Under the pieces are notes generated by a model, which was not told where the DNA came from, did not search any database, and was given only the letters and a program-made list of their open reading frames with translations. DNA of 64,000 nt from a virus. Both the position numbers and the translations under genes were made by a program. The stretch spans positions 3,005 through 67,004 of the IMG/VR virus record IMGVR_UViG_3300021378_000021, one strand, 5' to 3'. Below, one piece after another: positions 2,927 to 47,200 of this stretch. The stretch's first letter is position 1; each line of letters begins with the position of its first letter.

Positions 2927-3138
2927 GTTAAGAGTTTGCTAAAACTGATTGCCAGTAGGAACATAAGCATTATAACGACATCCCAAGATTTTGTCCTTAT
3001 AAAGTAAGGAACTGAAATCATATCGGCAACGAAGTGCAGCATAACTCCAAGAGTTATATTGATATGGAGAACAACAAAATATGCAGTAATCACTAGGATA
3101 CTACCAGTTATTCTCATTGGGACATCAACTTTAATCAT
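2923..3138 (-). CDS. Small hydrophobic membrane protein
   Basis: 71 aa with 2-3 hydrophobic stretches; 4-nt overlaps with both neighbours. Confidence 0.7.
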   Translation of the reverse strand: MIKVDVPMRITGSILVITAYFVVLHINITLGVMLHFVADMISVPYFIRTKSWDVVIMLMFLLAISFSKLLT

Positions 3139-21352: not shown

Positions 21353-23530
21353 TTAAACGTTACCGATTACTTCATCAAATGAAACACCAGTTCTGGTGGC
21401 AACAAACGTAAGACCGATGAAGTTGATTGATCTTGCGGGTTTGATAAAGATTTCTGCTACAAACTCATTATTATCTATAATAGCAGCAGTGTTATTTGTC
21501 TCATCACAAATAACTACAAAGTCGAAGATTCCTCTCTTTGCCTGAACATCACGAAGGAATGGTTCGACAATATTCACAAAGTTAGTTCTTGTGATTTCAT
21601 CATTAAACTCAAAGAGTTGATCTTTTGCAGCAGCAGAGATTGCGTCCTCAAGATAGATGAACAAACGACGAACGTTAATACGATCAAATGCTGACGACTT
21701 ACCAAATCCAGTCTTATCTCCAAAGAGAACAATACCGGCACCAGGTGAGAAGATTACTGGATTGACTCTATTAGAATACAATCTATCTCTCTGTACTTTA
21801 GATGGAGTATATGCAAGTTTAACTGCATTTAGAATTCCACCACGATTTGTTCCTGCTGGTGAGAACCATGGGAAGTTGTTCGCATCATTTCTGGCACAAA
21901 GTCCTGCAATGTCTCCGTTTAGTGGAACATATCTGAAGGTATTTGCAAACCTATCAAACATATACTTGTAACCACTATCAAAGATTCCATAAGTTGATGA
22001 AGTGATAGGAGCATAGAAACTGATTACATTCTCAGTAATCGTCTCATCTGAATTGATAGTTACTGCTCTATCATCAGATGTATCAGTAATTGCTGCAGCT
22101 CTGTATGGAGAGATGAATGCAATTGCATCCTTTCTTGCTTCGGCAACCGCAATACACTTATTCGCAAGTGCTTGTGCTTCTTCCTTAATATATCCTGCAG
22201 ATCCCATAAGAATGAAATCTACATTATACTTTTCAGTATTCTCAAATAATCCGTAACCAGTAGCCAATCCATTTAGACCTGGACTTAATGCACCAGTATT
22301 TTCTATGTTACCTGCTCCATCATAATTCCAACCACCACCTAATGTGTTGTTAGAATTACCAGTTGCTCCAAAAGTAATACCTTCTGCATTTTGATTCCAA
22401 GATACATCAGTTTCAGGATCGAATCCAGTTCCACCACTAACGAATCCAGTGGTCACAATACCTGCTGGTTGTGATCCTGCAAAAATATTTGGAGAACCAT
22501 TTGCAATATACTTTCTCCAGTATGAAGGAGATCCAAGAGAGAATTCTGCATCTTTTGCTTTTGATAGTGATAGATGCTTCTCAAGAATTGTTCCAGAGTT
22601 TCCAGTGATATCTCCATCACCATCAACTACGACAACATGGACTTCATCAAATCTAGAACCTCTTGATGCTGCATATTCAGAAGTTCCTGGACGATCTGCA
22701 AGTTGATTCCACTTAACAGTCGATGAAGAAGTTAAAGTAAGTGATTGTTGATCGAACCAATCTGCCTGTGCAGTAATTGAAGTAGTTGCATATGATACTG
22801 CTTGTCCACTAGTGTGAATTGCTACATTCCCAGTTCCGGAGAATGCATAAACACCTGATGGTTGATAATCAACTTCAGTTACAGTTCCTGCTGCAGAAAC
22901 GTGCTCAAGAACTTTTACATAAGCATCCGAACCGGCAACCTGAGTTACAATACCTTTTAAATATCCATCAAGAACTGAAGTAGTTCCTGCTCCGGGAAGT
23001 ACTGCTGAAATTGTTTGAGTAACTCCCATTCCAACAACAAGTCCTGCAGGTGCTGCAGAAAGTGTAAGAATTTGATCTGCCTTGGCATCAATAATACCAA
23101 CTCTTAAACCATTTGACCAAGAACCGGGATTTCTCGCAGCAACAACTACACCTGCAATTGGATTTTCGTTGTATCCTAGTTCTTCGTAGTGCTCAAGACT
23201 CTTAATCTTGATACTTGTGGTAGCTGCGGAAACAGCAACAAAACCGTTTTGTAGATCAGTGTCATCTGCTCTTACAACACTAAGTGCTCCACCATATGCC
23301 AGATAAGAAGAAGCAACTAACCAGTGCTCATAGTGCTTATCTGTTCCATATGGTTTTCCGAACACATCTAATAAGTCTTTCTCGCTTCCGATTACTGTAG
23401 GAAGATCGACAGGACCTTGTGCAAAAGGTGCAACAATTGCACCGATGCCACTGGAGGTTGGGTCAACCCTACCGACAGTTAAGTCTACTTCTCTTACTAC
23501 AATACCAGGAGATGCTAAATTTAGTGGCAT
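21353..23530 (-). CDS. gp18: Tail sheath protein
   Basis: LASPGIVVREVD, PWFSPAG, FDRINVRRLF, IKPARSINFI; CTAAATA late-promoter variant at 23565-23571. Confidence 0.98.
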   Translation of the reverse strand: MPLNLASPGIVVREVDLTVGRVDPTSSGIGAIVAPFAQGPVDLPTVIGSEKDLLDVFGKPYGTDKHYEHWLVASSYLAYGGALSVVRADDTDLQNGFVAVSAATTSIKIKSLEHYEELGYNENPIAGVVVAARNPGSWSNGLRVGIIDAKADQILTLSAAPAGLVVGMGVTQTISAVLPGAGTTSVLDGYLKGIVTQVAGSDAYVKVLEHVSAAGTVTEVDYQPSGVYAFSGTGNVAIHTSGQAVSYATTSITAQADWFDQQSLTLTSSSTVKWNQLADRPGTSEYAASRGSRFDEVHVVVVDGDGDITGNSGTILEKHLSLSKAKDAEFSLGSPSYWRKYIANGSPNIFAGSQPAGIVTTGFVSGGTGFDPETDVSWNQNAEGITFGATGNSNNTLGGGWNYDGAGNIENTGALSPGLNGLATGYGLFENTEKYNVDFILMGSAGYIKEEAQALANKCIAVAEARKDAIAFISPYRAAAITDTSDDRAVTINSDETITENVISFYAPITSSTYGIFDSGYKYMFDRFANTFRYVPLNGDIAGLCARNDANNFPWFSPAGTNRGGILNAVKLAYTPSKVQRDRLYSNRVNPVIFSPGAGIVLFGDKTGFGKSSAFDRINVRRLFIYLEDAISAAAKDQLFEFNDEITRTNFVNIVEPFLRDVQAKRGIFDFVVICDETNNTAAIIDNNEFVAEIFIKPARSINFIGLTFVATRTGVSFDEVIGNV

Positions 23531-23611
23531 CTTGTTTTTTCCTCGCATCCAATTTACCTAAAAATATTTAGGAAAAGGGGCATTTCTAGTGGGGAAACGA
23601 TGCGTGAATAC

Positions 23612-23833
23612 TTACCAATCAGGATATTCCCATACTAAAGTGCTTTTTCTACCTCTACTTACTCTTTTGACCGTACATTCCTTACATTCATATGAATATG
23701 CTGACGGTAATGTTTTTCTACCTTTTCGAGTCAAATAAAAATCATCTATTAAACTTTTAACTTCTCCACAAACTCTACATTTGCGATCAAAAAATAATAA
23801 ATGTTCCAATTCAATTTCATCATCAATAGACAT
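23612..23833 (-). CDS. Small zinc-finger protein (CxxC...CxxC)
   Basis: CRVC and CKEC; coupled to the TerL-C stop (TAATG). Confidence 0.75.
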   Translation of the reverse strand: MSIDDEIELEHLLFFDRKCRVCGEVKSLIDDFYLTRKGRKTLPSAYSYECKECTVKRVSRGRKSTLVWEYPDW

Positions 23834-24999
23834 TACCTATAATCCCACATATATGAACGATCTCCATATTCATCTGCATACCATCTATCTCCAGAATCAT
23901 CTACAAAAGTTGTTTCACCGTTAATTCCATCCTCAATAAATCCAAATGGAGCCATGTCCTGATCAATTTGATTTTTTTGCTCTTCATATATTCTCTTTCT
24001 TACATCATTCTCTGTCATCTCCTTAAAATATTCTTGTGCTACTAACCAGGAGAATATTACAAGACACATTGCCAAGTCATCATTACATCCTTCTTCTGCT
24101 TCAAAAGAATTTCCTTTTTGTGAAAATGTAGTTAGTTCTGATATGATTTCATAATCAGATGCAAGTAATTTATCATCTTCTATAAGAGTTTTAAGATTTG
24201 AACATCCTAATTTTTTGACTGCTGAAGTTGTACGAACTCCAAGTTGAGTTTTTTTACCAGAAAATCCTGTTCCCACTATCTGTCCATTTCTACCTCTCAT
24301 AGTTGCCATTAAAATATTCTCATATTCCAAATCATATTGAAGAATACTAGCAACTTGATCACCGATATCATTAACCTCTATCAATAGCCAGGATTGATTA
24401 TATCCTTTTGCTACATCAAATATGATATTAGGAAACAACATTGGTTTGATTTCATTGTTCCTATATTTTGCAACTACTTTATATGGAAACTCTGTGATAT
24501 CAAAAACAATAAATGCCGAATAATCATTACCAAGACCACGGGCAACATCAACCGTGATTAGATAATTATGATCCTCAATAGGATTTTCATAAACATCTAA
24601 TCCGGCATTTCTTTGTATCGGGTCTTCATATACTAAAGTTTTGAGTTTTGATGGATTGATAAGAGTATTAACAGAACCCAAGAACTCGCAGTTGTGTGAT
24701 ACTATATTGTTTGAATAGTAAAGATTGTCTTCGCCAACATCAAGTAAATCATAAAGATAAATTCCTTCTTCTACTATTTCATTATATAATACTTTCTTTT
24801 CTTGTAAAATATCATCAACTTTAATTGTTGATGCCTTAATTTTTTCTTTTCCGAAAGAATGATTATCGGAGCATTTTATTTCTGATCCGTCATCAAATAT
24901 TATCCAATGGTAAAAAGGTTTATAAACTTTTTGTATTCCTGAAAAATCTTTAAATCCATCAGGTGTTTTTACTTTAATATTTTTATTAATCTTAAACAT
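23833..24999 (-). CDS. gp17: Large terminase C-terminal fragment (nuclease domain) fused to C-intein
   Basis: First 103 aa are intein-like and end in SHN/C; remainder CEFLGS...ITVDVARG...DDLAM is the TerL RNase H-like nuclease domain. Confidence 0.93.
   Translation of the reverse strand: MFKINKNIKVKTPDGFKDFSGIQKVYKPFYHWIIFDDGSEIKCSDNHSFGKEKIKASTIKVDDILQEKKVLYNEIVEEGIYLYDLLDVGEDNLYYSNNIVSHNCEFLGSVNTLINPSKLKTLVYEDPIQRNAGLDVYENPIEDHNYLITVDVARGLGNDYSAFIVFDITEFPYKVVAKYRNNEIKPMLFPNIIFDVAKGYNQSWLLIEVNDIGDQVASILQYDLEYENILMATMRGRNGQIVGTGFSGKKTQLGVRTTSAVKKLGCSNLKTLIEDDKLLASDYEIISELTTFSQKGNSFEAEEGCNDDLAMCLVIFSWLVAQEYFKEMTENDVRKRIYEEQKNQIDQDMAPFGFIEDGINGETTFVDDSGDRWYADEYGDRSYMWDYR
24691..24999 (-). other. 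C-terminal half of atypically split intein (103 aa)
   Basis: Block B-like CSDNH, block F LYDLLDV, block G VSHN followed by Cys+1 (TGC at 24688-24690). Confidence 0.92.
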
Positions 25000-25561
25000 T
25001 TTTCCAACACTCGTTTAAAATAATCTTCTTCAATCCTTGAGGAGTTAAATTATATTCTTCGGCATATTCTCTACAAAATGCCTGAACATAAGACATTTTT
25101 TTGCCATTTTTCATAGTCATTCCAACATTCTGTAAATATGGTTTTTTATTATATAGTTTTCTTATTGTTCTTATCGTATTATCATTAATTTTTCTGCTAA
25201 AAACTCTGCCTTTTCTAGAGTTACTCATTTTCACTAAAGTTTCTTCAGAAAAGCAATTTTTAATTCCTTTGTTCCAAGGAATATTACCTTTCTTAACTCC
25301 GCCAATTCCTTTCCTTTCATAATCTCCAAAACCTTCCCCACCAGTGGACTTGTTCCATCCATTTGTAAAAGTATTAAATTTTTCTATGTAAAAAATTTCT
25401 TTTTCCTTTGCTTTTTCTGGAACATCTATTTGCTCTTTTATTTCAAAAGTGTGTGGGGGTTTATTTCTTTTATGTTCTCTTTTTCTATCATCTAAATTTT
25501 GGGTTTGTCCTACATATTTGACTTCGTTGTTTGAATCTTTAAGGAAGTATATATGATACAT
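24992..25561 (-). mobile_element. Free-standing GIY-YIG homing endonuclease with NUMOD3-like DNA-binding region
   Basis: HIY...YVGQT, Arg/Glu/Asn catalytic pattern (RKREH, KEIFYI, GWNKSTGG), IPWNKG and SEETLVKMSNSRKG repeats; inserted between the two terL halves. Confidence 0.88.
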
Positions 25562-25569
25562 TTTATTAT

Positions 25570-25577
25570 TATTTATA
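25570..25577 (-). promoter_or_regulatory. T4-type late promoter TATAAATA inside the terL insertion
   Basis: Exact motif 8 nt upstream of the endonuclease ATG. Confidence 0.75.
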
Positions 25578-25588
25578 ATCCAAAAAAC

Positions 25589-26467
25589 TCACAATCGTTC
25601 ATATAAATTTTCCATAGAAGTTTTTTGTACAATTCCATTATCATCCAAAATTTCAATCTCTGTATCACCACCCAAACATTCAAACTCAACCCGAAATTGT
25701 TGTTCAGATGTGTTTGCAATTGTTTGTTCTTTCCAAACTACATCTCTACCAGGAACTTCTGACCAATGAACTTCTGTAGGAATATATTCGTTTTTATTTC
25801 TTTCCGCATCGTGCCACATACGGTAGAAGTGATTCATACCGTGTGGTGTGGATACAATAATTACCTTTGTGCTTTTGCCAGAAGTAATAGTAGGATAAAC
25901 AGATGCAAAGAAGGAGTCAGCGACGTGATTAGGGACGAATGCGAATTCGTCGAGAAATAAGATATTGAACGACATGCCTCGGACAGCACTCGCAGATGTA
26001 GATGATGCCAATATCTTACTGCCATTTTCGAGTTCTATATTTCCTTTATTCCATACCAAAATACCTTGCTGCATCCATTTTGGTAAGTTTTCATATGCAG
26101 TTGATAATCTTGCTAACAATTCTCTGGCAGTAGATGCTTTGTTTGCCAGAATACCAATGTTTACACTGTCATTAAAAAGTGCATAATGTAAAAGATATGA
26201 TACCACAGTAGTAGACTTACCAGTCTGTCGTGGCATCTTACAAATATTGAATCTGTTATTGTGGAAATTGTGAATTAGTTTCTCTTGAAAATGATATGGA
26301 TGAAACTGTGTTAAACCTTCATCAAGAGAAACAATTTTAATATAGTTATTTGCAAAATAAACCGGATCTTGTTTACATTTCAGAAATTCAATAATTTGAT
26401 CTTCTGTAAACTCAATCGCAGTATTTGCTTTTTTTAATAATGGATTACCAAGATATACGTCACTCAT
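25589..26467 (-). CDS. gp17: Large terminase N-terminal fragment (ATPase domain) fused to N-intein
   Basis: YLGNP, HFQ adenine motif, Walker A PRQTGKST, Walker B LFLDEFAF, STPHG coupling motif; ends FRVEFE/CLGGDTEI...LYERL-stop. Confidence 0.95.
   Translation of the reverse strand: MSDVYLGNPLLKKANTAIEFTEDQIIEFLKCKQDPVYFANNYIKIVSLDEGLTQFHPYHFQEKLIHNFHNNRFNICKMPRQTGKSTTVVSYLLHYALFNDSVNIGILANKASTARELLARLSTAYENLPKWMQQGILVWNKGNIELENGSKILASSTSASAVRGMSFNILFLDEFAFVPNHVADSFFASVYPTITSGKSTKVIIVSTPHGMNHFYRMWHDAERNKNEYIPTEVHWSEVPGRDVVWKEQTIANTSEQQFRVEFECLGGDTEIEILDDNGIVQKTSMENLYERL
25592..25678 (-). other. N-terminal half of atypically split intein (29 aa)
   Basis: Block A CLGGDTEIEI followed by a short helix SMENLYERL and a stop. 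Confidence 0.9.
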
Positions 26468-26475
26468 AAAAATAA

Positions 26476-27753
26476 TTACCTTTGTTCGATCCAGTTAAGT
26501 ACTGCAAGTGCTTTCTTGTTAGTATTAGGTGAAGCACATGCTAAAGTGTATATATCACTGATTGTTCCAATACCACTTCTACCAATTTGTAGTTGTGCCT
26601 TTTCATCAATAGGAGTTAGAGCCGCACCACCAGCAATTGTAAATCCACTAAGGATAGTATTCCCACCAGTTATAGCAGTAGCACTTGTATCATATTGCAT
26701 AAAGGAGTTTGGATCTGAACCATCTGTCCAATTTGCACCAGTTAAGGTTGGGTTCTCAATTAATCTCCAATAGACATTAGTATTATCATTCGTTGCTGCT
26801 TGTAGAGATCTAATCAGAGCAACAGCACCTAACTGACTAGCTTTCAATCTGAGACTTATAATTGGATAGAATGTATTTGCTGCTGACATCGTAGTCCCTG
26901 TAATGGGATTAGCAACACTTTCAAGAATACCAAGTTTCTCTGGCTCACCTTCTTGAATTAGAGAATTAGAACCCTGATAGATGTAATGAGTTCCAGCAAC
27001 ACCAGTTACATTTTCAATCTCAACACGAATGGGTAAGAACGGAGTGGAACACCAAACAGTATCCAAAGTATTTGAGTTCTCAAATGTATGAGACGGAATT
27101 GTCTCATTTTTCATTAACCATGCAAACTCAACAATACCAGCACCATACCACTCATAGTTGATGGAAATCATCTGCTGTTTTGTTGGATCAGCAGTTACAC
27201 CAGTATATCCATTACCATCAAACTTTTCACCATTCCAATCGTCTCTGGTTACTCTTCTTTCAGTAACAATACCTGTCGTATTACTACGAATTACATAAGA
27301 ATAAGTGCCACCATCATCCTCAAAGTAAGCACCATTATTTTCATCAAATAATCCAAATCTTCTACGAATACCAACTTGTGGAGTATCAAGACGAATTGCA
27401 AATGTAAGAGTTCCACTTCTACCAGGAATGTATCTCATTACATTCTTGGTCTGACGAACTACACTACTACCAGCAGCAGAACCAACTTCCATTACTACAT
27501 TACTGGATGATGCATTAAAGGTAGCAGTTGCACCGACTCCGACTAATCTTTCATCCCATACATCAGCTTCTTTGCCATACTGAAAAGTATTGAAAAATAC
27601 TGTTTGGTATGGAGCAACTTTAAGTCTATTACTATCGGAAAAATTAGGTCTCCAATCTGTCTGGTTTCCCCAGTGATCTGCAATATTATATACCTCAAAG
27701 AGACTTCTCTCTTGATTTAGAAAGTCTTGAGTAGTCTTATTCCACTGTGCCAT
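26476..27753 (-). CDS. Putative virion structural protein (425 aa, beta-rich)
   Basis: Within the late operon; YIPGRS and YEWYGAG motifs; Gly/Thr-rich. Confidence 0.65.
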   Translation of the reverse strand: MAQWNKTTQDFLNQERSLFEVYNIADHWGNQTDWRPNFSDSNRLKVAPYQTVFFNTFQYGKEADVWDERLVGVGATATFNASSSNVVMEVGSAAGSSVVRQTKNVMRYIPGRSGTLTFAIRLDTPQVGIRRRFGLFDENNGAYFEDDGGTYSYVIRSNTTGIVTERRVTRDDWNGEKFDGNGYTGVTADPTKQQMISINYEWYGAGIVEFAWLMKNETIPSHTFENSNTLDTVWCSTPFLPIRVEIENVTGVAGTHYIYQGSNSLIQEGEPEKLGILESVANPITGTTMSAANTFYPIISLRLKASQLGAVALIRSLQAATNDNTNVYWRLIENPTLTGANWTDGSDPNSFMQYDTSATAITGGNTILSGFTIAGGAALTPIDEKAQLQIGRSGIGTISDIYTLACASPNTNKKALAVLNWIEQR

Positions 27754-35159: not shown

Positions 35160-35363
35160 CTATTTACTCAAGAAATCTTTAAGTAAATTTTTTATTTCTT
35201 CAATATCTTTTTTCATATTATTTAACTCTTCTTTCTCAGAATTTTTTCGTTTCACTCTATTCATATATCTATCATAAGCAATATCGTCACAATTAACAAT
35301 TGCTCCAGTATCCTCATCTCTGTAAAGATGAGGATGATCTTTAACTCTTATTAAATTCTTCAT
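35160..35363 (-). CDS. Conserved hypothetical protein with C-terminal coiled coil
   Basis: LYRDEDTGAIVN motif; ATGA overlap with upstream gene. Confidence 0.8.
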   Translation of the reverse strand: MKNLIRVKDHPHLYRDEDTGAIVNCDDIAYDRYMNRVKRKNSEKEELNNMKKDIEEIKNLLKDFLSK

Positions 35364-38300
35364 GCTAATGCGATTGTTCGAAGGTCACTAATAATTGGTG
35401 CATTTGCCTGATCAGTTCCTGACATAATAATTTTAATTGAATATCCACTAAATTCTCCCAAATCATTAGCACTAAACTCATATTCTAAGAACTGGTTAGC
35501 AGAACTTGCAGGAACTTTAACATCAGATTTCCCGTTATTTAAAGATGGATCAACAACTCTAAATCCACCGTCAGAAGTTGCCTCAAGATTCTCATATCCA
35601 GGGAACAATTCAAATTCTTGTTCAATTTCTGATGAATCATCTCTAACAAGACTATAAAGAACTCTAATGTCTGAAGATGCAGGTCTATATGCTCCAAGTA
35701 TAACTTTTAAGGAAGATGCTGGTTTGGATAAATTGACAGTATCAGAAACATAGATTGCTGAGTGTGGATCATTTAAAATAGAATTTACTCTAGAATCTGA
35801 AGCAAAATCGGTAACAGGTCTATTTAAATAATTTGATGCAAATTCAATAGTAGAATTTTCAAGATTTATAATTGGAGATAAGTTTTCATCTGTACTGTTT
35901 AGTGTAATTGCTGCAGTAAATGATCTTCTACCAGAAACATTATTGAATACTGGTTGTTGTAATTCATTTACTCTAGAACATACTATTCTGGTCGATTTTA
36001 AATTATTGAATGAATTTAACTCTACAGGTTCTACTTCATTTAGAAGTTGGAAAGAAGTTTCAGTACCATCAATACTAGTTCCAGTTGTTGTTCTAATTAC
36101 GGCACTTACTGAGGTTGAATCTCCAGGTGCCTGAACAAAGAATCTTGGATTTAGTGAATTAAATTGGATATTCTCAGTTGCATAGACATCATTTCCACCA
36201 CCAACAAATTGTCTATTAAATGATAATTGTGGTAAAGTTGCAGTATCTGCAGATCTATTTACTCCATATGTAGCACTTCGATCTACTTCAACATAATATC
36301 CATTAGAGTCGATTCCAGTATCAGAAATATCATAAATTACATTATTAATTCTTCTTAAAGATACTCCATTAAACTCATATTTTTGAACCTTAGAATTAAC
36401 TTCATGTGATTCAGTTTTTCCTTCAATACCTCTAACAAGAGTTCCTAACTCATTTGAAGATGCAGTTTCGTATGATATAACTTCATCTCCAATTTTTACA
36501 TATCCTGGATTGGAATTGCTAACAGGAAGACCTTCAAAAGTTTCAAAGACAGAAGAATCTTCAACAAATATTGTATTTAATTCTGTTGATAATAAACCAG
36601 CAGTAAGAATTGTTGGTGAAATATCAGATTCAACACCACTCAATTGCAATTTATTATTATTGGCATACATTCCATGATTAAAATGACTTACCTCTAAGTA
36701 ATTGCCAGAATTTGTTCCTGTTCCTTCAGTTACACTTAAAATGGTGGTAGATGCCAGAGATACAATAGTTGTATCTGTATCATAATAACTTACTCCAATA
36801 CCAGTTCGGAATGCTTTTGGTGAAGAATCGCCTTCACCTTGAACATTAGTCAGATAAAGTGTATCTCTTCCATTGATTGCATCAATACTAATTAATGCAC
36901 CTCTACCTGTTGTGTTACTAGTGATAGTCACTACATCACCAACTTCATATCCATTTCCATTAGCAGTTTTTGTAAGACCGGTGATTGCACCATTTCCATC
37001 TACACTATCGATAGTAAATTCTAACCCACTACCATTTCCGACAATATTAGTTGTTGGTCTGTTAGATTGAGTTGTATAATTTACACCACCATTAGTAGTT
37101 GTAATACCACTGACCGGTCCACCCGCATACTCAATATATCCATAACTATTTGGGATAGAACCAGCAATTTTTCTACCGGTAGTCAAAATACCAATTGTTG
37201 CTGCATCTGTGGATGTTGTAATTCCAAGATTGATAGTTTTTGGTAGACCAGTAACTGGATTTGCAAGTAAATTATTTACATATCCATTACTTTGATCTAA
37301 AGGTGGATTTCCAAAATGAGCAATACCAGTATTTGCGGTGAATTTTGCTTTGTAAAGTTTAAATTTAAGATCTAATTCTTGTGTAGGAGTCCAAATAGAT
37401 CCATTTTGAGACTTAAACAAACTACCAAGTGCGAATTGCTTACTATAAATGACTGCTTCCGCATCAGGTAAAGATTGTGTATTAACAGTTCTCTCTCCCA
37501 TTTTTGCAATCCAAACTTCATATTCATCTGAAGTAGGTGCAAGTAAAACTACAGCATATTCATTTCCTGGGGCAAGATATTTTGGTTCATCAAATGTAAC
37601 TCTTGTTGCAATTTCTCCAGTTGCTGATGTTGTAATTTGATCTGGATATAATGTTTTAGATTCTCCAACCAGATTTAGAGTTGGAATACCAAGTTCTACT
37701 GTTCTTATTTGAACTTCAAGAGGTTCACTACCTGCTGGTTTGTTGGCAAAAAAGATATCCAATTCGGTAAGAACTACACCCTTATCATCACTACTAAATC
37801 CATTTAAATCTGGAGCATCAATATCTCTACCAACAACAAATGATTGCGCAAGAGGATCAGATCTTCTTGCTCTTACAACTTCACGTCTAGTTGTTGTTAT
37901 AGTTGTAGTGCGTCTTACCGTAGTGTCAATAGTTGTCGTTACTGTGGTTTGTATTTGTCTTGTTAAGAGAGTTCCAACAGCACTATAAGATCCTTGACCG
38001 GTAGAAATTAACTTACTTCCAGGTAATGGTTTGGTATTTGTAGAACTACTAGTCAATAAGTATGTCTTTTTACCAGTAAGAAGTCTTGGATTTGGTGCCG
38101 GATTTGTATGAGGATTCTTGATAAAGAATGAACCAAAAAGATCTCCATAATTATCAGTTATCAATCTTAAATCTTTTACATATGCAATTGCACCACTCGT
38201 TTGTCCAACGATCTTTGCACCTTTGGTAACATACCCAAAAAATCTTCCTTGTGCTTCATCGGATAATGAATTTATATCAATATTTAATGTTTTGGATGAT

Positions 38301-41300
38301 TGACTATATGAAGTTGGTAGGTTTTCAGACCTTATATAAGGATTGATATTGTATGTTCTTGATGGAGAATTAAAAGATCCTTCTTTATGATTTGATGTTG
38401 CAAGTCTAAACCGACCTGTTTCTTGTCCACCTTTATATACTTTTACTGTTTCACCTGACGTAAATGATCCTTGTAAAGTGCCAGATGTCTCTAAAGATGT
38501 GCTATTAGCAATTTCTATGAGTTTCGGTATAAAATCTACATTACTATGATTATCTAAGAACTGATAATGTCTTGTTAAAGGTTTCAGTGATCTTCCGAAG
38601 AAAGAAACATTTCTAGATCTAATATACTGCTCATCACCACTTGAGATTAGAACATCTCTGGATCGTACATCAACTCTAGTTCTAGAAGTTGTTGAAGTCT
38701 GTGTTCTAGAGTTTGTACTACTTCTCCAGTCTGTTCGATCGACTCTGGCCCGATTTACGAACCCTCCACTCAAGTTAGGACCTACTCGTCCCCAAACACG
38801 TTCCCGTGTAACCACTAATCCGTTTATTGCACCGGATAGTGGTATTGATACTGTATTTCTAACAGTGTTAGTAACAACATTAGTAGTTCTTCTTGTTATA
38901 TTCTGTACAGAAGGGGGAATATAAATGGTTCTAATCCAAAAATCATTTTCTGGAGATAATTTTACATTTCCAACATACTCTATAACATGGAATGGATTAA
39001 CATTTTCAACACGAGTAGCAAGTGGTTGCTCCAACCAACCGATAGAATCATATTTTAGAGTAACAACATTTCCAGTTTTTTGAATATTTGGGTCTAATAA
39101 CTCAAAGTTAGTTGTCAAATCCAAATCTTCTTCGGAAATTTCTGAAGAAGGTAAAACTCTTTGTCTTAAAGAATTAGAAAGAAGTCTTGGTCTCAATTGA
39201 CCTTCACTAATATCTGCTGATGTTAGATTTTGATCACTGTTCGTTTGATCAACAAAATTATCTACAAAGAAACCAGACTTAAATCTATTATTACCATCTT
39301 CATCTTCAATACGCAATGCTTCAGTACTCACCTCTAATAAACTTAAAGATGTGACTCTTTCCAAGTTTTCTATTCTATCTTCAAGTTGACCAATATCCCT
39401 CATAGTATATCTTCTATTATCAACCAAATTAATAGAAACATCATCAGGATCATAAAGATATGGTGGAAGTATAATGGTTGCCAATTCCATCAAACTTTGA
39501 TCATTACTTGGAGATGCTTTTGGATCTTTTGCCGAAACACCTTTACTAACGATAAGATTTTCAAATTTATCAAGATATAATTTATCAATTCTTGGGAGAT
39601 AAAAATCAAACCCAATCAGTGAACTTTCTCCAGGTTTTAAGTTATAATCTGTAGTAAATGTTCTTGAACTAAAATCAAATGGTGAAGCAGTTGTTGAAGA
39701 ATAATCAACAACTCTTGGTCTAAAGTCTAATGTATCAGAAGCTCTAACATCATTAGGTCCAATTGTAGGAATATCATTTAAAAATCTATCATCATCATAA
39801 CTTAAAACCGTAAATACATCTCCAGTGTCTGATGCAGGAACTATATAATGATCATAGACAACTAACAATCTCTTAGATGGTTCTGAATCTGTTGTTCTGA
39901 TTAATCTTGAATAATCATAATATTCATTTTTTTGTCCACCATCAAGAACAAAATTGTCTGTTACGTTATTATACTTTCCTAATGTAATAGACTGAACGGT
40001 AGAAATAATATTAGATTCTTTGAATGTTACAGTTTCTCCAGCAGTAAAAGTATTTTGATTTAGATAAACTACACCTAATTTATTGGCACCACCTGATGAT
40101 GGTGAGGAACTATTATTTGTTACGACTCTTCCAACTGCTCCACTCTCAGAACCAATGATATTTTCTCCAATAATAGCATCTGTTCCAACATTGGATATTG
40201 AAGAGAATTCAATTGCATCTAGTGTAGGATCTGCAGTATTCGTTGATTCATATACTACAAGAACTTTTGCTACATCAGGAACATTTAATGAAATTTGATC
40301 ATCTTGAACTCTGAGTCCATAATATGGATTATATGTTAGTCCATCATTGATTGATATGCTAGATGCAGATCCAGATTGTGCTAATTTTGAAAGATTGACT
40401 ACTTCTATTGCACTTCTAGTAAATTTTTTAATTTTACTTTGAATTCCATTCTTCTTCAGTGTTACATTTACAACTATATTTGATTGACCAGAGGTTAATC
40501 CTTCAATTTCGACTCCAGTTCCCCCTCCAGTAAGAGTAAACGCATCAGAAGTTACTGTTCCAATTCCACCCCCAGTATAATGAACGGAATATCTTTCCTG
40601 ATCAAATGACTCATAAAATGCGCTTGTAATGCCGGTTGGTAGTCCAAATACTAAATCACCAGAACCATCAGTTGCTTCTCCAGTTATTTGATTTGTTATT
40701 AATAACTGAGAACCTGAGAGATCAACAGAGGAAATATTAGATTCTGGAAGATTTGCATAAAGAAATCCATTTTCACTATTTTTTATTTCTGCTACTCTAA
40801 GATTTGCCGTATAATTGCCATTAGAAATTGCGGTTCCAGTAAATACTCCACTAACACTAGAAATACTAGCAATAGTCAGTGATGCCAAATCTGAAGAAAT
40901 TGCTGTAACTCTATTATACCTTAAACCACTTCCTTCTACGACACTAATTACATCATTCACTTTGACTCCAGAGAATAATTTTCCTGGACTTGTTACGGTT
41001 GTTCCATTAACATTAACTTCCGAAATTCCATTAGAGAACTTTTTAGAACTTAATACTGCATCTGCATTAAAATCTGGAAATCCTGATACACTAGTTTTCT
41101 TAACAGATTTTAATTGATTAATATTATTTTGAACAAAACTCTTAATTGTTAATGCAGTCTCAACTCCGTTAACAATCAATTTTTCTCCAGTTACAAACGT
41201 TCCCGAAGTTTGACTGAGATTTAACGGTCCAACACCACCAGCGACAACAAAACCACTCGCACCACTACTCTTTCCTTTTATAAAAGAAGATGTTGGAATT

Positions 41301-42712
41301 TGATCTGCGGTTACACCTACATTAAAGGTTATATTTGTATAAGTTTGAATATCATAAAGATATAAATCCCATTGAGTTGCTGCACCAGAATATGCAGCAT
41401 CAGTCAAGTTAAAGGTATATACTCTCGCAGCACCAATTATCGACCCCCCTCCACCAAGTTGATCATATAAATCTAAAGTTTCATTTTCTTTTGGAGCACC
41501 ACTGACATTATTAACTCTAAGTAAATGCCCCATCTCAAATGGGATATTAGCACTACTTATACTTTCAGTATCTCTTGGTTTTTCTACATCTATAGCAGTT
41601 TCTGTATCTAAAGTAACATCATAACCATCAACATATGCTCTTCCAGGACTTACCTGTAGACACATTAAATCATCCGATGGAGTATTTCCTTGTTCTGTAG
41701 TTTCTCCCTCTAAATATAAACCATCATTATCGATTTGATCATTTAACGAATTGAGTGCTTTAACACCAAACTCATCTACGGCATAATGACCAGATTCATC
41801 AAATGTTCTTTCTGCAATATAATCTCTTATTAAATTATAAACAGGTCTATTTTCGATTTTTTTAATTTTTCCTTCATCTACTCTCAATATCTCTACAAAA
41901 TCAGTATCTGTATTATTAGATATTTCTTTTTTTGTAAGTGTTAATGCTATCTTTAATCTGTCTGCTCCTGGTGCTGCAAAATTAGTGAAACCACTTGCAT
42001 TATCATATAAAGACGAATCATCCTTTGCATTTACAATCGTTTCGGATATTTTTAATCCTACTCTATACGAAGGAGTATTGGTATAATAATCTAATATAAG
42101 TGTTTGCTTAGAAACTTCTACAAATGTTCCTCTGATAAAATAAACACCATTATCAATAGATGCTGCTGAACCAACAAATGTTGCATCCTGAGAGATTAAT
42201 GATGCAAATGCGGTTCCTGCGGCAATTGTAGTATTACCATACGTGACATTTTCACTTGCAAATAACTGTTCTCCATCTTGAAATACATCTGTTTCTGCAT
42301 TATCTCCAGACTCTCCATATTTAACATAAATTGTAAGATCACTTACTAGATCACTATCAGATGTAAGGGCAACTTCTTGAATAGATGCTGTTACACCCGA
42401 AAGTTGTCCTGTAATTTTCTTTCCAATAAAATTCTTAATATAAACAGAGACATCTATACCTAAATTAACCGCATTTAATTTTACTGCAGAAAACTGATTA
42501 TCAAAAGTTACAGATCCTGGAAGAACCATAGATCCTTCTTTAAAAATATTGCCACCAAAAGACTCTACTTGGTTCTGTAAGATGGATTGAAGAGTTGTTA
42601 ATTCTCTAGCCTGAACTGGATATCCTGGTTTAAATAAAACTTTATAAAAATTTTTATCCCCATCAAAATCATCATAATATGGGCTTATATTTAAGTCTGT
42701 TTTTTGTGCCAT
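35360..42712 (-). CDS. Large virion structural protein (VrlC/DUF4815-like, 2450 aa)
   Basis: N-terminal PYYDDF...LFKPGYPVQARELTTLQSILQNQ, APGADR, RTFDESG, DPLAQSF; follows gp8. Confidence 0.85.
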   Translation of the reverse strand: MAQKTDLNISPYYDDFDGDKNFYKVLFKPGYPVQARELTTLQSILQNQVESFGGNIFKEGSMVLPGSVTFDNQFSAVKLNAVNLGIDVSVYIKNFIGKKITGQLSGVTASIQEVALTSDSDLVSDLTIYVKYGESGDNAETDVFQDGEQLFASENVTYGNTTIAAGTAFASLISQDATFVGSAASIDNGVYFIRGTFVEVSKQTLILDYYTNTPSYRVGLKISETIVNAKDDSSLYDNASGFTNFAAPGADRLKIALTLTKKEISNNTDTDFVEILRVDEGKIKKIENRPVYNLIRDYIAERTFDESGHYAVDEFGVKALNSLNDQIDNDGLYLEGETTEQGNTPSDDLMCLQVSPGRAYVDGYDVTLDTETAIDVEKPRDTESISSANIPFEMGHLLRVNNVSGAPKENETLDLYDQLGGGGSIIGAARVYTFNLTDAAYSGAATQWDLYLYDIQTYTNITFNVGVTADQIPTSSFIKGKSSGASGFVVAGGVGPLNLSQTSGTFVTGEKLIVNGVETALTIKSFVQNNINQLKSVKKTSVSGFPDFNADAVLSSKKFSNGISEVNVNGTTVTSPGKLFSGVKVNDVISVVEGSGLRYNRVTAISSDLASLTIASISSVSGVFTGTAISNGNYTANLRVAEIKNSENGFLYANLPESNISSVDLSGSQLLITNQITGEATDGSGDLVFGLPTGITSAFYESFDQERYSVHYTGGGIGTVTSDAFTLTGGGTGVEIEGLTSGQSNIVVNVTLKKNGIQSKIKKFTRSAIEVVNLSKLAQSGSASSISINDGLTYNPYYGLRVQDDQISLNVPDVAKVLVVYESTNTADPTLDAIEFSSISNVGTDAIIGENIIGSESGAVGRVVTNNSSSPSSGGANKLGVVYLNQNTFTAGETVTFKESNIISTVQSITLGKYNNVTDNFVLDGGQKNEYYDYSRLIRTTDSEPSKRLLVVYDHYIVPASDTGDVFTVLSYDDDRFLNDIPTIGPNDVRASDTLDFRPRVVDYSSTTASPFDFSSRTFTTDYNLKPGESSLIGFDFYLPRIDKLYLDKFENLIVSKGVSAKDPKASPSNDQSLMELATIILPPYLYDPDDVSINLVDNRRYTMRDIGQLEDRIENLERVTSLSLLEVSTEALRIEDEDGNNRFKSGFFVDNFVDQTNSDQNLTSADISEGQLRPRLLSNSLRQRVLPSSEISEEDLDLTTNFELLDPNIQKTGNVVTLKYDSIGWLEQPLATRVENVNPFHVIEYVGNVKLSPENDFWIRTIYIPPSVQNITRRTTNVVTNTVRNTVSIPLSGAINGLVVTRERVWGRVGPNLSGGFVNRARVDRTDWRSSTNSRTQTSTTSRTRVDVRSRDVLISSGDEQYIRSRNVSFFGRSLKPLTRHYQFLDNHSNVDFIPKLIEIANSTSLETSGTLQGSFTSGETVKVYKGGQETGRFRLATSNHKEGSFNSPSRTYNINPYIRSENLPTSYSQSSKTLNIDINSLSDEAQGRFFGYVTKGAKIVGQTSGAIAYVKDLRLITDNYGDLFGSFFIKNPHTNPAPNPRLLTGKKTYLLTSSSTNTKPLPGSKLISTGQGSYSAVGTLLTRQIQTTVTTTIDTTVRRTTTITTTRREVVRARRSDPLAQSFVVGRDIDAPDLNGFSSDDKGVVLTELDIFFANKPAGSEPLEVQIRTVELGIPTLNLVGESKTLYPDQITTSATGEIATRVTFDEPKYLAPGNEYAVVLLAPTSDEYEVWIAKMGERTVNTQSLPDAEAVIYSKQFALGSLFKSQNGSIWTPTQELDLKFKLYKAKFTANTGIAHFGNPPLDQSNGYVNNLLANPVTGLPKTINLGITTSTDAATIGILTTGRKIAGSIPNSYGYIEYAGGPVSGITTTNGGVNYTTQSNRPTTNIVGNGSGLEFTIDSVDGNGAITGLTKTANGNGYEVGDVVTITSNTTGRGALISIDAINGRDTLYLTNVQGEGDSSPKAFRTGIGVSYYDTDTTIVSLASTTILSVTEGTGTNSGNYLEVSHFNHGMYANNNKLQLSGVESDISPTILTAGLLSTELNTIFVEDSSVFETFEGLPVSNSNPGYVKIGDEVISYETASSNELGTLVRGIEGKTESHEVNSKVQKYEFNGVSLRRINNVIYDISDTGIDSNGYYVEVDRSATYGVNRSADTATLPQLSFNRQFVGGGNDVYATENIQFNSLNPRFFVQAPGDSTSVSAVIRTTTGTSIDGTETSFQLLNEVEPVELNSFNNLKSTRIVCSRVNELQQPVFNNVSGRRSFTAAITLNSTDENLSPIINLENSTIEFASNYLNRPVTDFASDSRVNSILNDPHSAIYVSDTVNLSKPASSLKVILGAYRPASSDIRVLYSLVRDDSSEIEQEFELFPGYENLEATSDGGFRVVDPSLNNGKSDVKVPASSANQFLEYEFSANDLGEFSGYSIKIIMSGTDQANAPIISDLRTIALA

Positions 42713-42718
42713 CTTTTT

Positions 42719-44230
42719 TTAGAATTCCAGAATAATTTTGATGTCTTCTTTTTGTCTAGAGTCTCTCTGAACTTCGGGTCGGTTGTCAATATAAATTATA
42801 TCCCCCGTCTTTTTATTTATCTCTGGATTTGAAAGACCATTTGTAAAAGTAACTCCCAGATTAATCTGCTTATTATTAACAACTACAACACTACCGTTTA
42901 GATCTGCAATACTTGCAGAACCTCCACTAGTATTAAATTCAATGTCATTAGTAGAATTGAATGCTATTATATCTGTTGTACTGTCACTAAGTGTTTGGTC
43001 TATTTTATTTCCAAAACATAATGATCTGTCTTGATAATATTTCAAAACTTTAGTATCTTTATCAAATGATGCTACATATCCTTTTGCCCCGGACACACTT
43101 TGAGTTATTTGTTCACCAATAGTTACGTTTCTAGACTCTGATAGTCCGATACCAGAAAGAGATGAGAATGTATTCCCAGTAAAAGTTACTCCTGCTCCAG
43201 AAAATGTTTCGGGATTTTTTATAATTCCGACCTGAGCAAATTTAGTGTCTATTGGAAAATCTTTAGTTGAATCGTCGAATCTTGCATACATTAATACTTT
43301 ATCTGTTCCCAACTCCTCATAAATGTTATAACCATGACCTTTTGATGGAGGAATTATAGGTATTAATTTTGCAGTATCAGTGGGGGAAGATTTGGGTAAA
43401 TTAAGAATTCCATATGTATATCCTTTTCCGCCATTTATCACCGTGATATCGGTTATTGTACCTGCACTATCTACTACAATAGAAACTGTAGCACCACTTC
43501 CGTCACCTATGATAGATGCTACTGTGCCATTAGTATATCCAGTTCCACCATCTTCGATATATACTGCCTTTATTTGATTATTATTAGTATCAGAGTTTCC
43601 TCCTTCTCTAATAGTTTGAATACTAGAATCCGTTGTAGTCAACCAATCATTAGGAACTGTAATATATTCTGTAGAATCAAATTTAATTACATCTGATGGA
43701 GGAATACTGAATAGATATTTCCATCTATATCCATCAGACCCTGCAACAGATGGTTCTACATCAGTATGTGTTGGTTCTATTGTCGATCCTGTAACCGTAG
43801 GATTAGGTCCAGAAGAACCATTATCTATACAAATATAAACTTTAAATTCACTTGTAATAATATAATAATTTGCATCATATAATCTTACTGTTTTAGATAC
43901 GGGAGATTCATTACCTTGACGATAATCATGACGATACATGTCATAAGGAGTATTTGCAACCCATTCAACCTTTCTTATAACTCTTCTGGCATTTTCTGTA
44001 GTAATCTTTTTACCAAATAAACTAGTATCTCTATAATGAGACAAATATTGAAAATTATCTACAGGATTATTAGTTGTGCTTGTATTCCAATTGTCGGTTC
44101 TTCCAAATCCAACTGATCCCGGAGTTGGATTTGATAAACCTAAGAAAGCATAATAAGAATTATTACTGATAGACTCTACAAAAGAACCAGCATTCAATAT
44201 TCTAAATTGATCTGTTACGAATGCGGACAT
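42719..44230 (-). CDS. gp8: Baseplate wedge subunit
   Basis: YDMYRHDY, FKVYICIDNG, DGYRWKYLF, GDIIYIDNR...QKEDIKIILEF. Confidence 0.92.
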   Translation of the reverse strand: MSAFVTDQFRILNAGSFVESISNNSYYAFLGLSNPTPGSVGFGRTDNWNTSTTNNPVDNFQYLSHYRDTSLFGKKITTENARRVIRKVEWVANTPYDMYRHDYRQGNESPVSKTVRLYDANYYIITSEFKVYICIDNGSSGPNPTVTGSTIEPTHTDVEPSVAGSDGYRWKYLFSIPPSDVIKFDSTEYITVPNDWLTTTDSSIQTIREGGNSDTNNNQIKAVYIEDGGTGYTNGTVASIIGDGSGATVSIVVDSAGTITDITVINGGKGYTYGILNLPKSSPTDTAKLIPIIPPSKGHGYNIYEELGTDKVLMYARFDDSTKDFPIDTKFAQVGIIKNPETFSGAGVTFTGNTFSSLSGIGLSESRNVTIGEQITQSVSGAKGYVASFDKDTKVLKYYQDRSLCFGNKIDQTLSDSTTDIIAFNSTNDIEFNTSGGSASIADLNGSVVVVNNKQINLGVTFTNGLSNPEINKKTGDIIYIDNRPEVQRDSRQKEDIKIILEF

Positions 44231-44274: not shown

Positions 44275-47200
44275 TTATACTTCTCTTTTAGGTAATGCCC
44301 CAGTTTTTCTAATACCAATACCTCTTCTCTGAATTGTTGGATATGTTGTCAATCCAGATACAGTATTGCCAGTAACACCAATTGATATTGGATTTGTAGA
44401 TCTTGTTCCTCCTTCTAATAATCCCCATGAGTATTTTCCAACGGGATTTAATGTACTTCCAGTAGTTCCAAGACCAACTACATTAGAATTTGAATCTACA
44501 TTACATGTAATAATTCCAATTGTAGTTCCAGCACCCGTATTATTAGACCAAGAAGAAACATAGTAAACATTGTCCAGGAAAGTAGTTCCAATTCCAACAA
44601 CTGCAGAATTTGAATCATCAATTGAGGTGACTCCACTACCAATTTGAGTATCATAGATATAAATTGGATAACCTGTCGATAGTCCAGTAAAGTTATTACT
44701 GTCAATCAATGTAAATTGAAGTGCTAAAGGAACACCAATTCCAGATGCTGTTGTAATACCAGTTACTATTCCAGAGAAACCTTTAATATTACTAAATCCT
44801 GTAATTTTTTCAATAGATCCCAAAGATTCTGTAGAAATACCATTAATAATAACCGCATCTAATGGAGTAGAAGAATCGGTATATCCATTATCAGTTTCAT
44901 AATTAAATAATTCTATATTATCGACAAATATTTCAGTATCGGTTGTAGACACATCTTTGATAATTCTTGCAGTTGGGAAGATTAACGGTTCTAATACATC
45001 TCTTGATTTATAAACATATTGGCCATTAATTTTCTTATCTGTTTTTTGCTTAGTCCAAGATAAAGGTTTGTAATTGATTTCATCAACTCCTAATCCAGTA
45101 TATCGATTAGTTTCAAATTTATCAGAAGTAGTTATGTTGTAAACTGTTCTTTCATCTTGTGTTATTGTATTTGGATAGATATTGTTACTTATTACTTGAA
45201 CAACATCACCAGTTTCTATAGTTGGTATGATATTATCTACTAGTGTAGAATCAGTCCCATCAACACCTTTATAGAAGTATATTTCAATTTCTTCTTCTGG
45301 TAACGGTGCTCTTGTAAATGCAAATGATGTCCCACCTTCAAAGATGTAATTTTCTACTGGTTTTTGTAATACTCCATTAACAAAAATTATAAGAACATTG
45401 TTAATATTTTCTTCAATTGGAGAATTTTCTTGAGGTTCAAAACTCAGAGGTGTTGAATTATAATTAAGTGGGAATCTAGTTCTTGATCCATCTTGTAAGT
45501 TTTGAATAGAATCAATATAATCAAGTTCTCCAAATTCCCAAGCAGCAAAATTATCAGAATAAGTATCAACTACTGTAATTTCAAAATCTGATATTGGAGA
45601 AGATAGAGAACCATCAGTGACTAATCCAACAGGTTTAAATACATCACCTCTTCTGAAATTATATCCTGGTCTTGAAAATTTGACTTCAGTTACTTCGAAT
45701 AAAGTGGATCCTATTCCCGTAGATCCACCAACTTTTAAATCTACTAATAAACCATTTCCCGTATCAGTTGTTGCTCCAATTCCTAACCTAGAAACACCAA
45801 TCACTGGTAGATTTTTATATGATGGATCTGAAACGAATATTTCAGGATTACTATATCCAGTTCCTCCACCAACAACATTAAACGATAAAGTTCCTCCAAC
45901 ACCAATATTTGCCGTAATTGTTGCTGCAGCACCAGAATGTCCACTTTCATATACGGATATTCCGATAGAAACTAAACCATTATATCCAGAACCATGTCCT
46001 GTAGTTCCTAGTCCAACAGATACAATAGAACCTCCAGCACCAACAACAGCAGTCACAGAAGCACCTACAAGTGGTGCAAATCCAAGTCCAGGTGTAGATC
46101 CATATGAAACTATAATTCCACCTCTAGGAACTTCATTTGCATTAGTATCATAGTCAGAAACAAAATATTCAAGAGGAAATTCGTCCGGTCTAGTAATTCC
46201 AGAGAATTCAACAGTAGATATTCCTGCACTAGAGTCTTCTAAGATTTGATAATTAAATCTTGTTGGATTGTTATCAGTTTTGGGTGATTGGTAAATGTTA
46301 TTAATAAAAACTAGACCACTTGAACCTTCTGTTCCAATTCCTGTAGTATTTGCACCACCAACTTTTAGTGTGAATGTTCTTCCAATTCCAGTAAATTCAT
46401 CAGATAAATCATCATAAACTTTGTTATTATCATAATTAGATTTAAAAAATACTCTACCAGTAAATGATGAGGTTTCAGAATCTAAATTATTTTTTGTTTT
46501 TGCGATTTGTGGATTACCTCTTGGTGCTTCTGTGAAATAAATTTCACTATCTTCAATATTAAATGAACCTTTATGAATTCTTACTAAGGTAGAATCTGTA
46601 TGAGTTGATGCAGAAGAACCTACAAATCCTCTCTTGACTTCAACTAAATTTATACTCCCTTCATTTGTAATCGGTCCTACATTGGTTGTTCCCAATCCAA
46701 CATTAGTTACACCCATGTATTCATCATCAACTTTCAATATATCTCTTGGATTTATTGTTGAAATTCCACTTAGTGATACAATACTTGTACTATTGTTTAG
46801 AGAACCACCAACATTTCCACTCAAAGTATGTGTAATCTTAGTAGGTGCTATTGGATATTGAACCAATTCATCAACAGTTAAGATGCACTTACTGTTTTTT
46901 TCTTTCATAGTGAATCTATGAGCATTTCCTTCTCCAAAGGAAGTAAATGTTGTTCCAATTCCTGCAGCAGCTGCTGTAGTTGTTATTGCTACTTTGAAAG
47001 TATTTTCGGTTAATTTGATAGCATAAACTGTAGATGGAAGTTCTCCACCAGGAGTAACAATTGCACTAGTTCCAACACCAACGATTGTAGAGTTTGGAGT
47101 ATAGATTAATTCTTCTCCAGTTACAAAGAAGTGATTTTGAATTGTAAATATTCCAGTAGATGCATCTAATGCAGATGAATTTGGATTAAATTTCTTTGAG

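Follow-up and report, generated by a model that had tools for sequence, protein, structure and literature searches.

'Fractured genes' were defined from ocean metagenomes by Dassa 2009 (PMC2677866), with one terminase locus among them, from Lake Gatun, whose intein 'is fractured at an unusual point'; the same paper reports GIY-YIG genes between the intein halves, leader hairpins and endonuclease-less derivatives. Split inteins of large terminases (TerL) listed in a review (PMC11766414) are AceL-TerL, with halves of 25+104 amino acids (aa) and Cys1/Cys+1, GOS-TerL (37+115 aa, Ser1) and Cat-TerL (30+104 aa), and rates of in vitro splicing are given there for AceL-TerL, GOS-TerL and Cat. From these two sources (PMC11766414, PMC2677866) we took the range used here for the atypical TerL split, namely about 25-37 aa for the N-half and about 104-122 aa for the C-half. 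Here we describe a locus of this class in a 64,000-nucleotide (nt) stretch of viral DNA, hereafter the window, that spans positions 3,005 to 67,004 of IMG/VR record IMGVR_UViG_3300021378_000021. With a probability of about 90% we read it as the fractured large-terminase gene (terL) of an uncultured marine T4-like cyanophage related to Synechococcus phage S-SKS1, the two products of which would be joined by trans-splicing of a split intein.

The fractured terminase gene and its split intein

The locus comprises three consecutive open reading frames (ORFs) on the minus strand, encoding TerL-N with the N-intein (IntN), a GIY-YIG protein, and the C-intein (IntC) with TerL-C, which PHROGs calls terminase large subunit, homing endonuclease and terminase large subunit, respectively. 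Its features are as follows, with a slash at each splice junction and E standing for expect value:

25589-26467, minus strand: ORF of TerL-N plus IntN, 292 aa, ending ...FRVEFE/CLGGDTEIEILDDNGIVQKTSMENLYERL, then TGA
25679..26467, minus strand: TerL N-extein, ATPase domain, 263 aa (Pfam Terminase_6N, E 1.1e-21)
25592..25678, minus strand: N-intein (IntN), 29 aa from Cys1, with its TGA stop at 25589-25591
25578..25596, minus strand: putative pseudo-homing site, 19 nt, overlapping the last IntN codons and the stop
25570..25577, minus strand: TATAAATA late-promoter-type box, 8 nt ahead of the endonuclease ATG
24992..25561, minus strand: free-standing gene of the predicted GIY-YIG homing endonuclease, 189 aa
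23833-24999, minus strand: ORF of IntC plus TerL-C, 388 aa, beginning MFKINKNIKV... and containing ...NNIVSHN/CEFLGS...
24691..24999, minus strand: C-intein (IntC), 103 aa, with its own ATG and His-Asn at the end
23833..24690, minus strand: TerL C-extein, nuclease domain, 285 aa plus stop, starting with Cys+1 (Pfam Terminase_6C, E 1.9e-12)

These ORFs, boundaries and coordinates had all been given correctly in a preliminary description of this DNA, made from its letters and ORF translations, and Pfam and PHROGs agree with them; the GIY-YIG gene that it placed between the halves was likewise recognized by both (Pfam GIY-YIG, PHROG 314). The N-extein aligns to the T4 gp17 structures 3EZK/2O0H (E 1e-57) until the last residues before the intein, and the insertion thus lies at the boundary of the two Pfam domains. 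Between IntN and IntC, a short N-half and a long C-half of 29 and 103 aa, lie a stop codon and the endonuclease gene, and IntC starts at an ATG of its own that overlaps the endonuclease ORF by 8 nt (24992-24999). G+C content is about 0.38-0.41 in the flanks and 0.25-0.31 in the insert.

Both intein halves are matched by the crystallized Cat intein. IntC aligns with chain B of PDB entry 6DSL ('Consensus engineered intein CatC') at E 7e-55 and about 88% identity, and the IntN tail aligns with CatN, chain A of the same entry, at E 4.5e-11 and about 72% identity (both identities counted from the alignment). The crystallized CatN chain carries the identical EFE extein residues ahead of position 1. 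Weaker matches connect IntC to gp41-1 intein structures including 6QAZ (E 7e-5). The predicted nucleophile Cys1 is encoded at 25676-25678 (minus strand), and the CSDNHSF His motif, residues 43-49 of IntC, aligns with the same motif of CatC; we take this internal motif to be the one named block B or N3. Since each half matches one chain of the solved complex, the two are predicted to form a HINT fold jointly. The atypical 29+103-aa split and the close similarity to Cat stated in the preliminary description were thereby both borne out, as was, at the sequence level, the HINT-domain match that it had named as a check.

The empty-site allele is provided by S-SKS1, a phage of Synechococcus WH7803 and the closest isolate in the phage collection searched (50,697 records; 90.6% identity over the query parts covered). 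Its TerL is uninterrupted, counts 548 aa and reads ...FRVEFECEFLGS..., with the junction FRVEFE-CEFLGS. Nucleotide alignment of the window with the S-SKS1 terL yields a single clean insertion of 988 nt exactly at that codon boundary, and it is this empty site that sets the IntN boundary. The N-extein is 89% identical to S-SKS1 TerL at the aa level, and the C-extein is colinear with its C-terminal half. Thus, the spliced product of 548 aa that had been proposed in silico, junction included, corresponds to a real allele of a cultured phage, because the S-SKS1 protein is uninterrupted; aligning the joined sequence with an intact cyanophage gp17 was a check proposed beforehand, and both the predicted junction and the length were found. 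The match of the intein halves together with the exact empty-site insertion is far beyond chance. The insert DNA, when searched in 'distant' mode against the 50,697 phage records, returned no match. The empty-site allele also occurs in at least 120 IMG/VR stretches, and therefore both alleles circulate.

We strongly infer trans-splicing from the retained splice-site residues and from the fact that the Cat consensus of this family splices; Cat and AceL-TerL both do so in vitro (PMC11766414). Two TerL polypeptides would be produced late in infection, whereupon the short N-intein would dock onto the C-intein to complete the HINT fold. Class 1 splicing could then proceed by acyl shift at Cys1, transfer to Cys+1 and cyclization of the terminal Asn, with release of a seamless 548-aa TerL.

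Compared to Cat, the intein has the same short N-half and long C-half (29+103 aa here, 30+104 aa in Cat), the same Cys1 and Cys+1, a TerL host and the EFE extein; Cat is an engineered consensus, whereas the window holds a natural allele, one that belongs to the very family that gave rise to Cat. GOS-TerL is a more distant relative because of its Ser1 and its 37+115 aa, and is set apart on the basis of its description in the review. With the inteins of Dassa 2009, AceL-TerL, GOS-TerL and Cat known, this is not a new kind of intein. The use as a protein-ligation tool foreseen in the preliminary description was overstated, with Cat already in existence, and little would be gained over Cat, which was built from the same family. 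The arrangement reported in Dassa 2009 is shared in its same-strand host ORFs with intein halves, in the free-standing endonuclease between them, in the TATAAATA box in the endonuclease 5' region, in the overlap of the endonuclease 3' end with the C-intein start (6-69 bp there, 8 nt here) and in the existence of endonuclease-less derivatives. The two differ in that the terminase C-intein has 122 aa there and 103 aa here, and in the leader hairpins, present in 15 of 16 cases there (the hosts named exclude terminase) and not detectable here.

More remote relatives of IntC were found at the protein level in the phage collection, at 37-41% identity in 77 phage records. Those of a cultured T4-like coliphage and a Campylobacter phage (vB_vPM_PD112 and CP30A, respectively) are homologous, near-N-terminally split and likewise placed in TerL; their insertion site differs, being in the Walker B region (...IDE/CAF...). 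In PD112 (L082, 115-2706) a cysteine-rich, non-GIY-YIG ORF of 200 aa lies between the halves. In CP30A (L084, 2495-3823) the gene preceding that of C-intein and TerL-C is the neck-protein gene gp13, and the N-half must therefore be encoded at another place in that genome. In both records the annotation of the pieces reads simply 'terminase large subunit'.

Relatives in ocean viruses and movement of the cassette

Scanning IMG/VR with the C-intein returned 131 confirmed relatives, 80 of which were kept (83-100% identity). Both halves are seen in 71 of the 80 kept loci, and all 71 are split, with the stop codon after IntN retained and an N junction of ...EFE/C[LV][GSD]G in every one of them. A GIY-YIG gene of the same family lies between the halves in 67 of the 71, the distance from IntN end to IntC start being 592-599 nt, and the 8-nt overlap of endonuclease stop and IntC ATG recurs in 67 of 67; in the remaining four loci, which have no endonuclease gene, the gaps measure 9, 9, 11 and 47 nt. 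At the other end, (V/I)SHN/CEF closes the intein in 80 of 80 loci, internal stops in IntC are absent, and CS[DEN]NHSF is retained in all 79 full-length copies of IntC. The IntN peptides diverge down to about 65% identity among related loci. Endonuclease ORFs are intact in 42 of 43 distinct homologues, and the fraction of sequences sharing the majority base is lower at third than at first and second codon positions, both in IntN (0.73 vs 0.84) and in the endonuclease (0.77 vs 0.91). Loci of this kind are already known and abundant in ocean viruses: with a fractured terminase with an unusual split described in 2009 (PMC2677866) and 131 relatives in IMG/VR, the novelty initially claimed for this locus was overstated. 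In locus L028 (2439-3005) the endonuclease ORF is stopped at codon 96, inside the otherwise invariant PWNKG motif, possibly as a decaying copy or through a sequencing error.

The protein encoded between the halves matches Pfam GIY-YIG PF01541 (E 4.1e-7, 30.6 bits against a cut-off of 22.6) and PHROG 314 'homing endonuclease' (E 4.7e-17). Its structural model (mean predicted local distance difference test score 74) comprises a GIY-YIG domain (residues 1-67), a disordered linker (73-103), a short helix (106-113) and a confident helical domain (127-181). Top Foldseek matches of the model, with probability 1.0, are the I-TevI catalytic domain 1LN0, the best at E 0.012, and UvrC GIY-YIG, and the modeled succession of two domains and a flexible linker would resemble I-TevI as well; in the whole-chain fold search no solved DNA-binding domain matched the model. 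I-TevI itself is intron-encoded, as part of an element spliced as RNA, whereas the gene described here stands free between protein-spliced halves. During co-infection the endonuclease would cut intein-less terL alleles, and repair would copy the whole cassette into them (homing).

Movement of the cassette was assessed in the 55 loci for which 400 nt of flanking sequence is available at either end. In 11 locus pairs, amounting to about six groupings, the inserts are 98.7-99.9% identical while a 400-nt flank is 76-95% identical, and, going outward from the intein boundaries, the first mismatch is met after 16-28 nt on the N-extein side and after 3-21 nt on the C-extein side. The 988-nt insert of the window differs from those of loci L006, L007, L004 and L010 by 6 mismatches each; with L006 and L007, the C-extein of the window is 88.5-88.8% and the N-extein 82-92% identical. 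From such near-identical inserts in diverged terL genes it follows that the IntN-endonuclease-IntC unit is exchanged whole between them. The cassette has thus moved horizontally between diverged terL backgrounds, and its exchange as a whole fits homing into intein-less alleles. We also considered the asymmetry of co-conversion as a clue to the side of cleavage and set it aside, the signal being blurred by the last N-extein codons, which are conserved anyway.

The endonuclease gene comes and goes on a short time scale, since L078, without the gene, and L077, with it, have flanks 100% and 99.7% identical and differ by the endonuclease cassette of about 590 nt only. Locus L022 is a visible deletion derivative. 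The endonuclease-less loci L057, L078 and L080 keep the split and carry a Shine-Dalgarno-like TGAGG(G/T) 5-6 nt before the IntC ATG, an element missing from endonuclease-bearing alleles. RNA libraries X15 and X16, whose records are assembled contigs that possibly include DNA and resolve no transcript ends, hold insert-bearing alleles (contig depth about 16-18) and insert-free alleles (depth at the joint 38-49). Donor and recipient phages therefore coexist in one sample, which is a precondition of homing.

The window offers a clean natural case of an arrangement already on record, whereby an essential phage motor would be assembled by protein trans-splicing. It adds a genomic context of 67 kb and, together with the related contigs, a cassette that is actively exchanged among diverged terminase genes of marine cyanophages. 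The 'full genomic context' of the preliminary description holds insofar as the window lies on a 67-kb contig, and falls short insofar as that contig is about 32% complete. Beyond the literature consulted go only the evidence for cassette mobility and the operator-like site discussed below, the operator being put forward as a hypothesis.

Competing explanations of the interrupted gene

Since each of the two terL ORFs holds one complete domain by Pfam, their products might function without a peptide bond between them, held non-covalently by the intein halves or acting as separate subunits, and the endonuclease-fractured NrdA of phage Aeh1 indeed works as fragments without splicing (PMC2677866). 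We consider this improbable: non-covalent docking alone would not need Cys1, the His of CS[DEN]NHSF, the terminal His-Asn and Cys+1 to be invariant across 71-80 loci despite IntN divergence to about 65%, and the near-identical Cat halves splice fast in vitro (PMC11766414). The chances are slimmer still that the insert is removed as RNA, for instance as a group I intron with a GIY-YIG gene like that of T4 td, with the intein features incidental. T4 group I introns do typically carry GIY-YIG genes (PMC2988022), and the exact form with 988 nt skipped is met among the RNA-library contigs of two runs, both from one study. Against removal as RNA, positions 23000-27000 show no intron family and no group I ribozyme core when scanned with Rfam at E up to 10, where only two chance-level matches came up; the endonuclease 5' region has no conserved RNA structure (0 pairs; z-score 0.27); and on either side of the endonuclease gene lies the coding sequence for one half of a solved intein (6DSL). 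Moreover, S-SKS1 has the skipped form in its genomic DNA, as do at least 120 IMG/VR stretches, and for that reason we attribute it to coexisting alleles and not to RNA splicing; insert-containing contigs occur in the very same RNA libraries. In assembled metatranscriptome contigs from 4 runs of 3 studies, several join insert to extein sequence (X15 record 5, covering 24640-25736; X17 records 17 and 19; X18 record 29). A fusion of IntN to the endonuclease by TGA readthrough was also entertained and rejected, the frame relation being 51/9/7 over 67 loci and hence not conserved; in the window taken on its own, IntN and the endonuclease do share a frame, with one TGA and 9 codons between them.

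Equally slim is the prospect that terL is simply broken, as a decaying gene in a defective phage or as an assembly artefact. The contig is admittedly a fragment, about 32% complete. The same architecture nevertheless returns, its frames intact, in every one of the 71 loci in which both halves are seen, 67 of them having the endonuclease gene and 4 lacking it; codon-position conservation in the related loci is typical of coding constraint; and in the index, runs of 7 further studies, beyond those that are possibly the source, share at least half of the sampled words of the stretch. Runs X19-X24 share little or nothing of it and speak neither for nor against. Several points nonetheless count against a fractured terL joined by trans-splicing and spread by homing. 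Splicing at this locus is deduced from sequence and from its Cat relatives, and the activity and the target of the endonuclease are predicted ones, the Foldseek search of its model having produced nothing at E <= 0.001. The exact skipped form is present in RNA-library contigs at depths of 38 (X15) and 49 (X16), in libraries that may include DNA. Terminase_6N is matched only once in the 67,004-nt IMG/VR record to which the window belongs; with that record estimated to be about 32% complete, a second terL may lie elsewhere. Lastly, no cultured phage in the 50,697-record collection has this intein at 60% identity or more.

The endonuclease promoter and neighboring genes

Conservation across the insert was examined in an alignment of 50 distinct loci, as little as 66% identical in pairwise comparison, over an 860-nt region. 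Among the 18-nt windows of this region, those of highest conservation are non-coding and lie just past the IntN stop, with a majority fraction of 0.98, compared to 0.84-0.93 at coding positions 1 and 2 and 0.67-0.77 at third positions. A conserved RNA hairpin as the reason for this conservation is ruled out, for no hairpin was found in the endonuclease 5' leader, RNAalifold returning 0 pairs on 41 sequences and the single-sequence z-score being 0.27. What the leader does contain is a TATAAATA box, near-invariant in 41 aligned sequences. Boxes of this type ahead of fractured-gene endonuclease genes are cited as a late-promoter element (Dassa 2009, PMC2677866). In the window, all six TATAAATA boxes are on the coding strand and within the intergenic portion, which makes up about 7% of the window, and five of the six sit 8-33 nt ahead of an ORF ATG.

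Directly abutting the box, and likewise part of the most conserved stretch, is a 19-nt site that reproduces positions -3 to +16 of the uninterrupted terL junction. Consensus sequences of 81 intein-less alleles and of 39 such pseudo-sites agree at 18 of 19 positions. When scored against a profile of the 81 empty sites, which were collected by a pattern fixing part of the scored positions, the pseudo-site of the window (17 of 19 positions, 22.8 bits) outscores every other of the 127,962 positions of the two strands. The occupied junction comes second with 14.4 bits, and no further position exceeds 8 bits. Because the collecting pattern fixes some positions, this profile reflects extein coding sequence. 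Comparison of each pseudo-site with the C-extein of its own locus gives 11-15 matches of 18, against background maxima of 10-13, which is weakly significant; the signal is thus clear only against the profile of the 81 empty sites. In eight loci (L044, L053, L055, L059, L069, L070, L071 and L076) the pseudo-site opens with a tandem duplication of 6 nt (TGTGAA + TGTGAG), which shifts the IntN stop and brings the IntN-IntC gap to 599 nt.

A precedent is found in I-TevI, whose operator resembles its homing site at 15 of 20 nt and overlaps its own late promoter, the enzyme repressing there without cutting (PMC2988022). Both enzymes thus have a homing-site-like sequence at their own late promoter, 15/20 in I-TevI and 17/19 here (18/19 for the consensus). 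The I-TevI operator overlaps the promoter, whereas the pseudo-site abuts the promoter box and its operator role is putative. By analogy, and at somewhat less than even odds, the endonuclease may be dual-function like I-TevI, homing to the terL junction and also binding the uncut pseudo-site, thereby throttling its own promoter. The C-intein/TerL-C ORF might be throttled too, since the same TATAAATA promoter lies upstream of it. Alternatively, or in addition to a role as operator, the pseudo-site may be the footprint of the first entry of the endonuclease gene into the intein at a target-like sequence, along the lines of collaborative homing, an idea mentioned in PMC2988022. In Dassa 2009, as far as it was available, there is no mention of a homing-site-like sequence beside the promoter, and within a partial coverage of the literature we found no description of one at the endonuclease promoter of a fractured gene.

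The conserved pseudo-homing site is therefore the part of this locus that could teach something new. If it were an operator, it would reveal the recognition sequence of the enzyme without experiment, would extend operator-type self-regulation from intron-encoded endonucleases to those of fractured, protein-spliced genes, and would suggest self-limiting expression as a general solution for homing endonucleases residing inside essential late genes.

Adjoining the terL pieces, an ORF of 73 aa (23612-23833, minus strand), whose ATG overlaps the terL stop, matches PHROG 4723 'endonuclease VII' (E 6.4e-34) and displays a CxxC...CxxC spacing, and is possibly another small nuclease gene next to terL. 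The homologous stretch of S-SKS1 is unannotated and has only a GTG-start ORF of 50 aa. Just upstream of terL, an ORF of 425 aa (26476-27753, minus strand) belongs to no Pfam family and occupies a hypervariable position, with 54-66% identity in L006-L009 and 91% in L002, whereas the adjoining terL N-extein is 82-97% identical; S-SKS1 has a hypothetical gene of 250 aa at this position. Further along, the coding strand carries giant ORFs of 3,862 aa (44275-55863, minus strand) and 2,450 aa (35360-42712, minus strand), and a TATAAATA box is found in the short gap downstream of the former, 17 nt before ORF 42719-44230.

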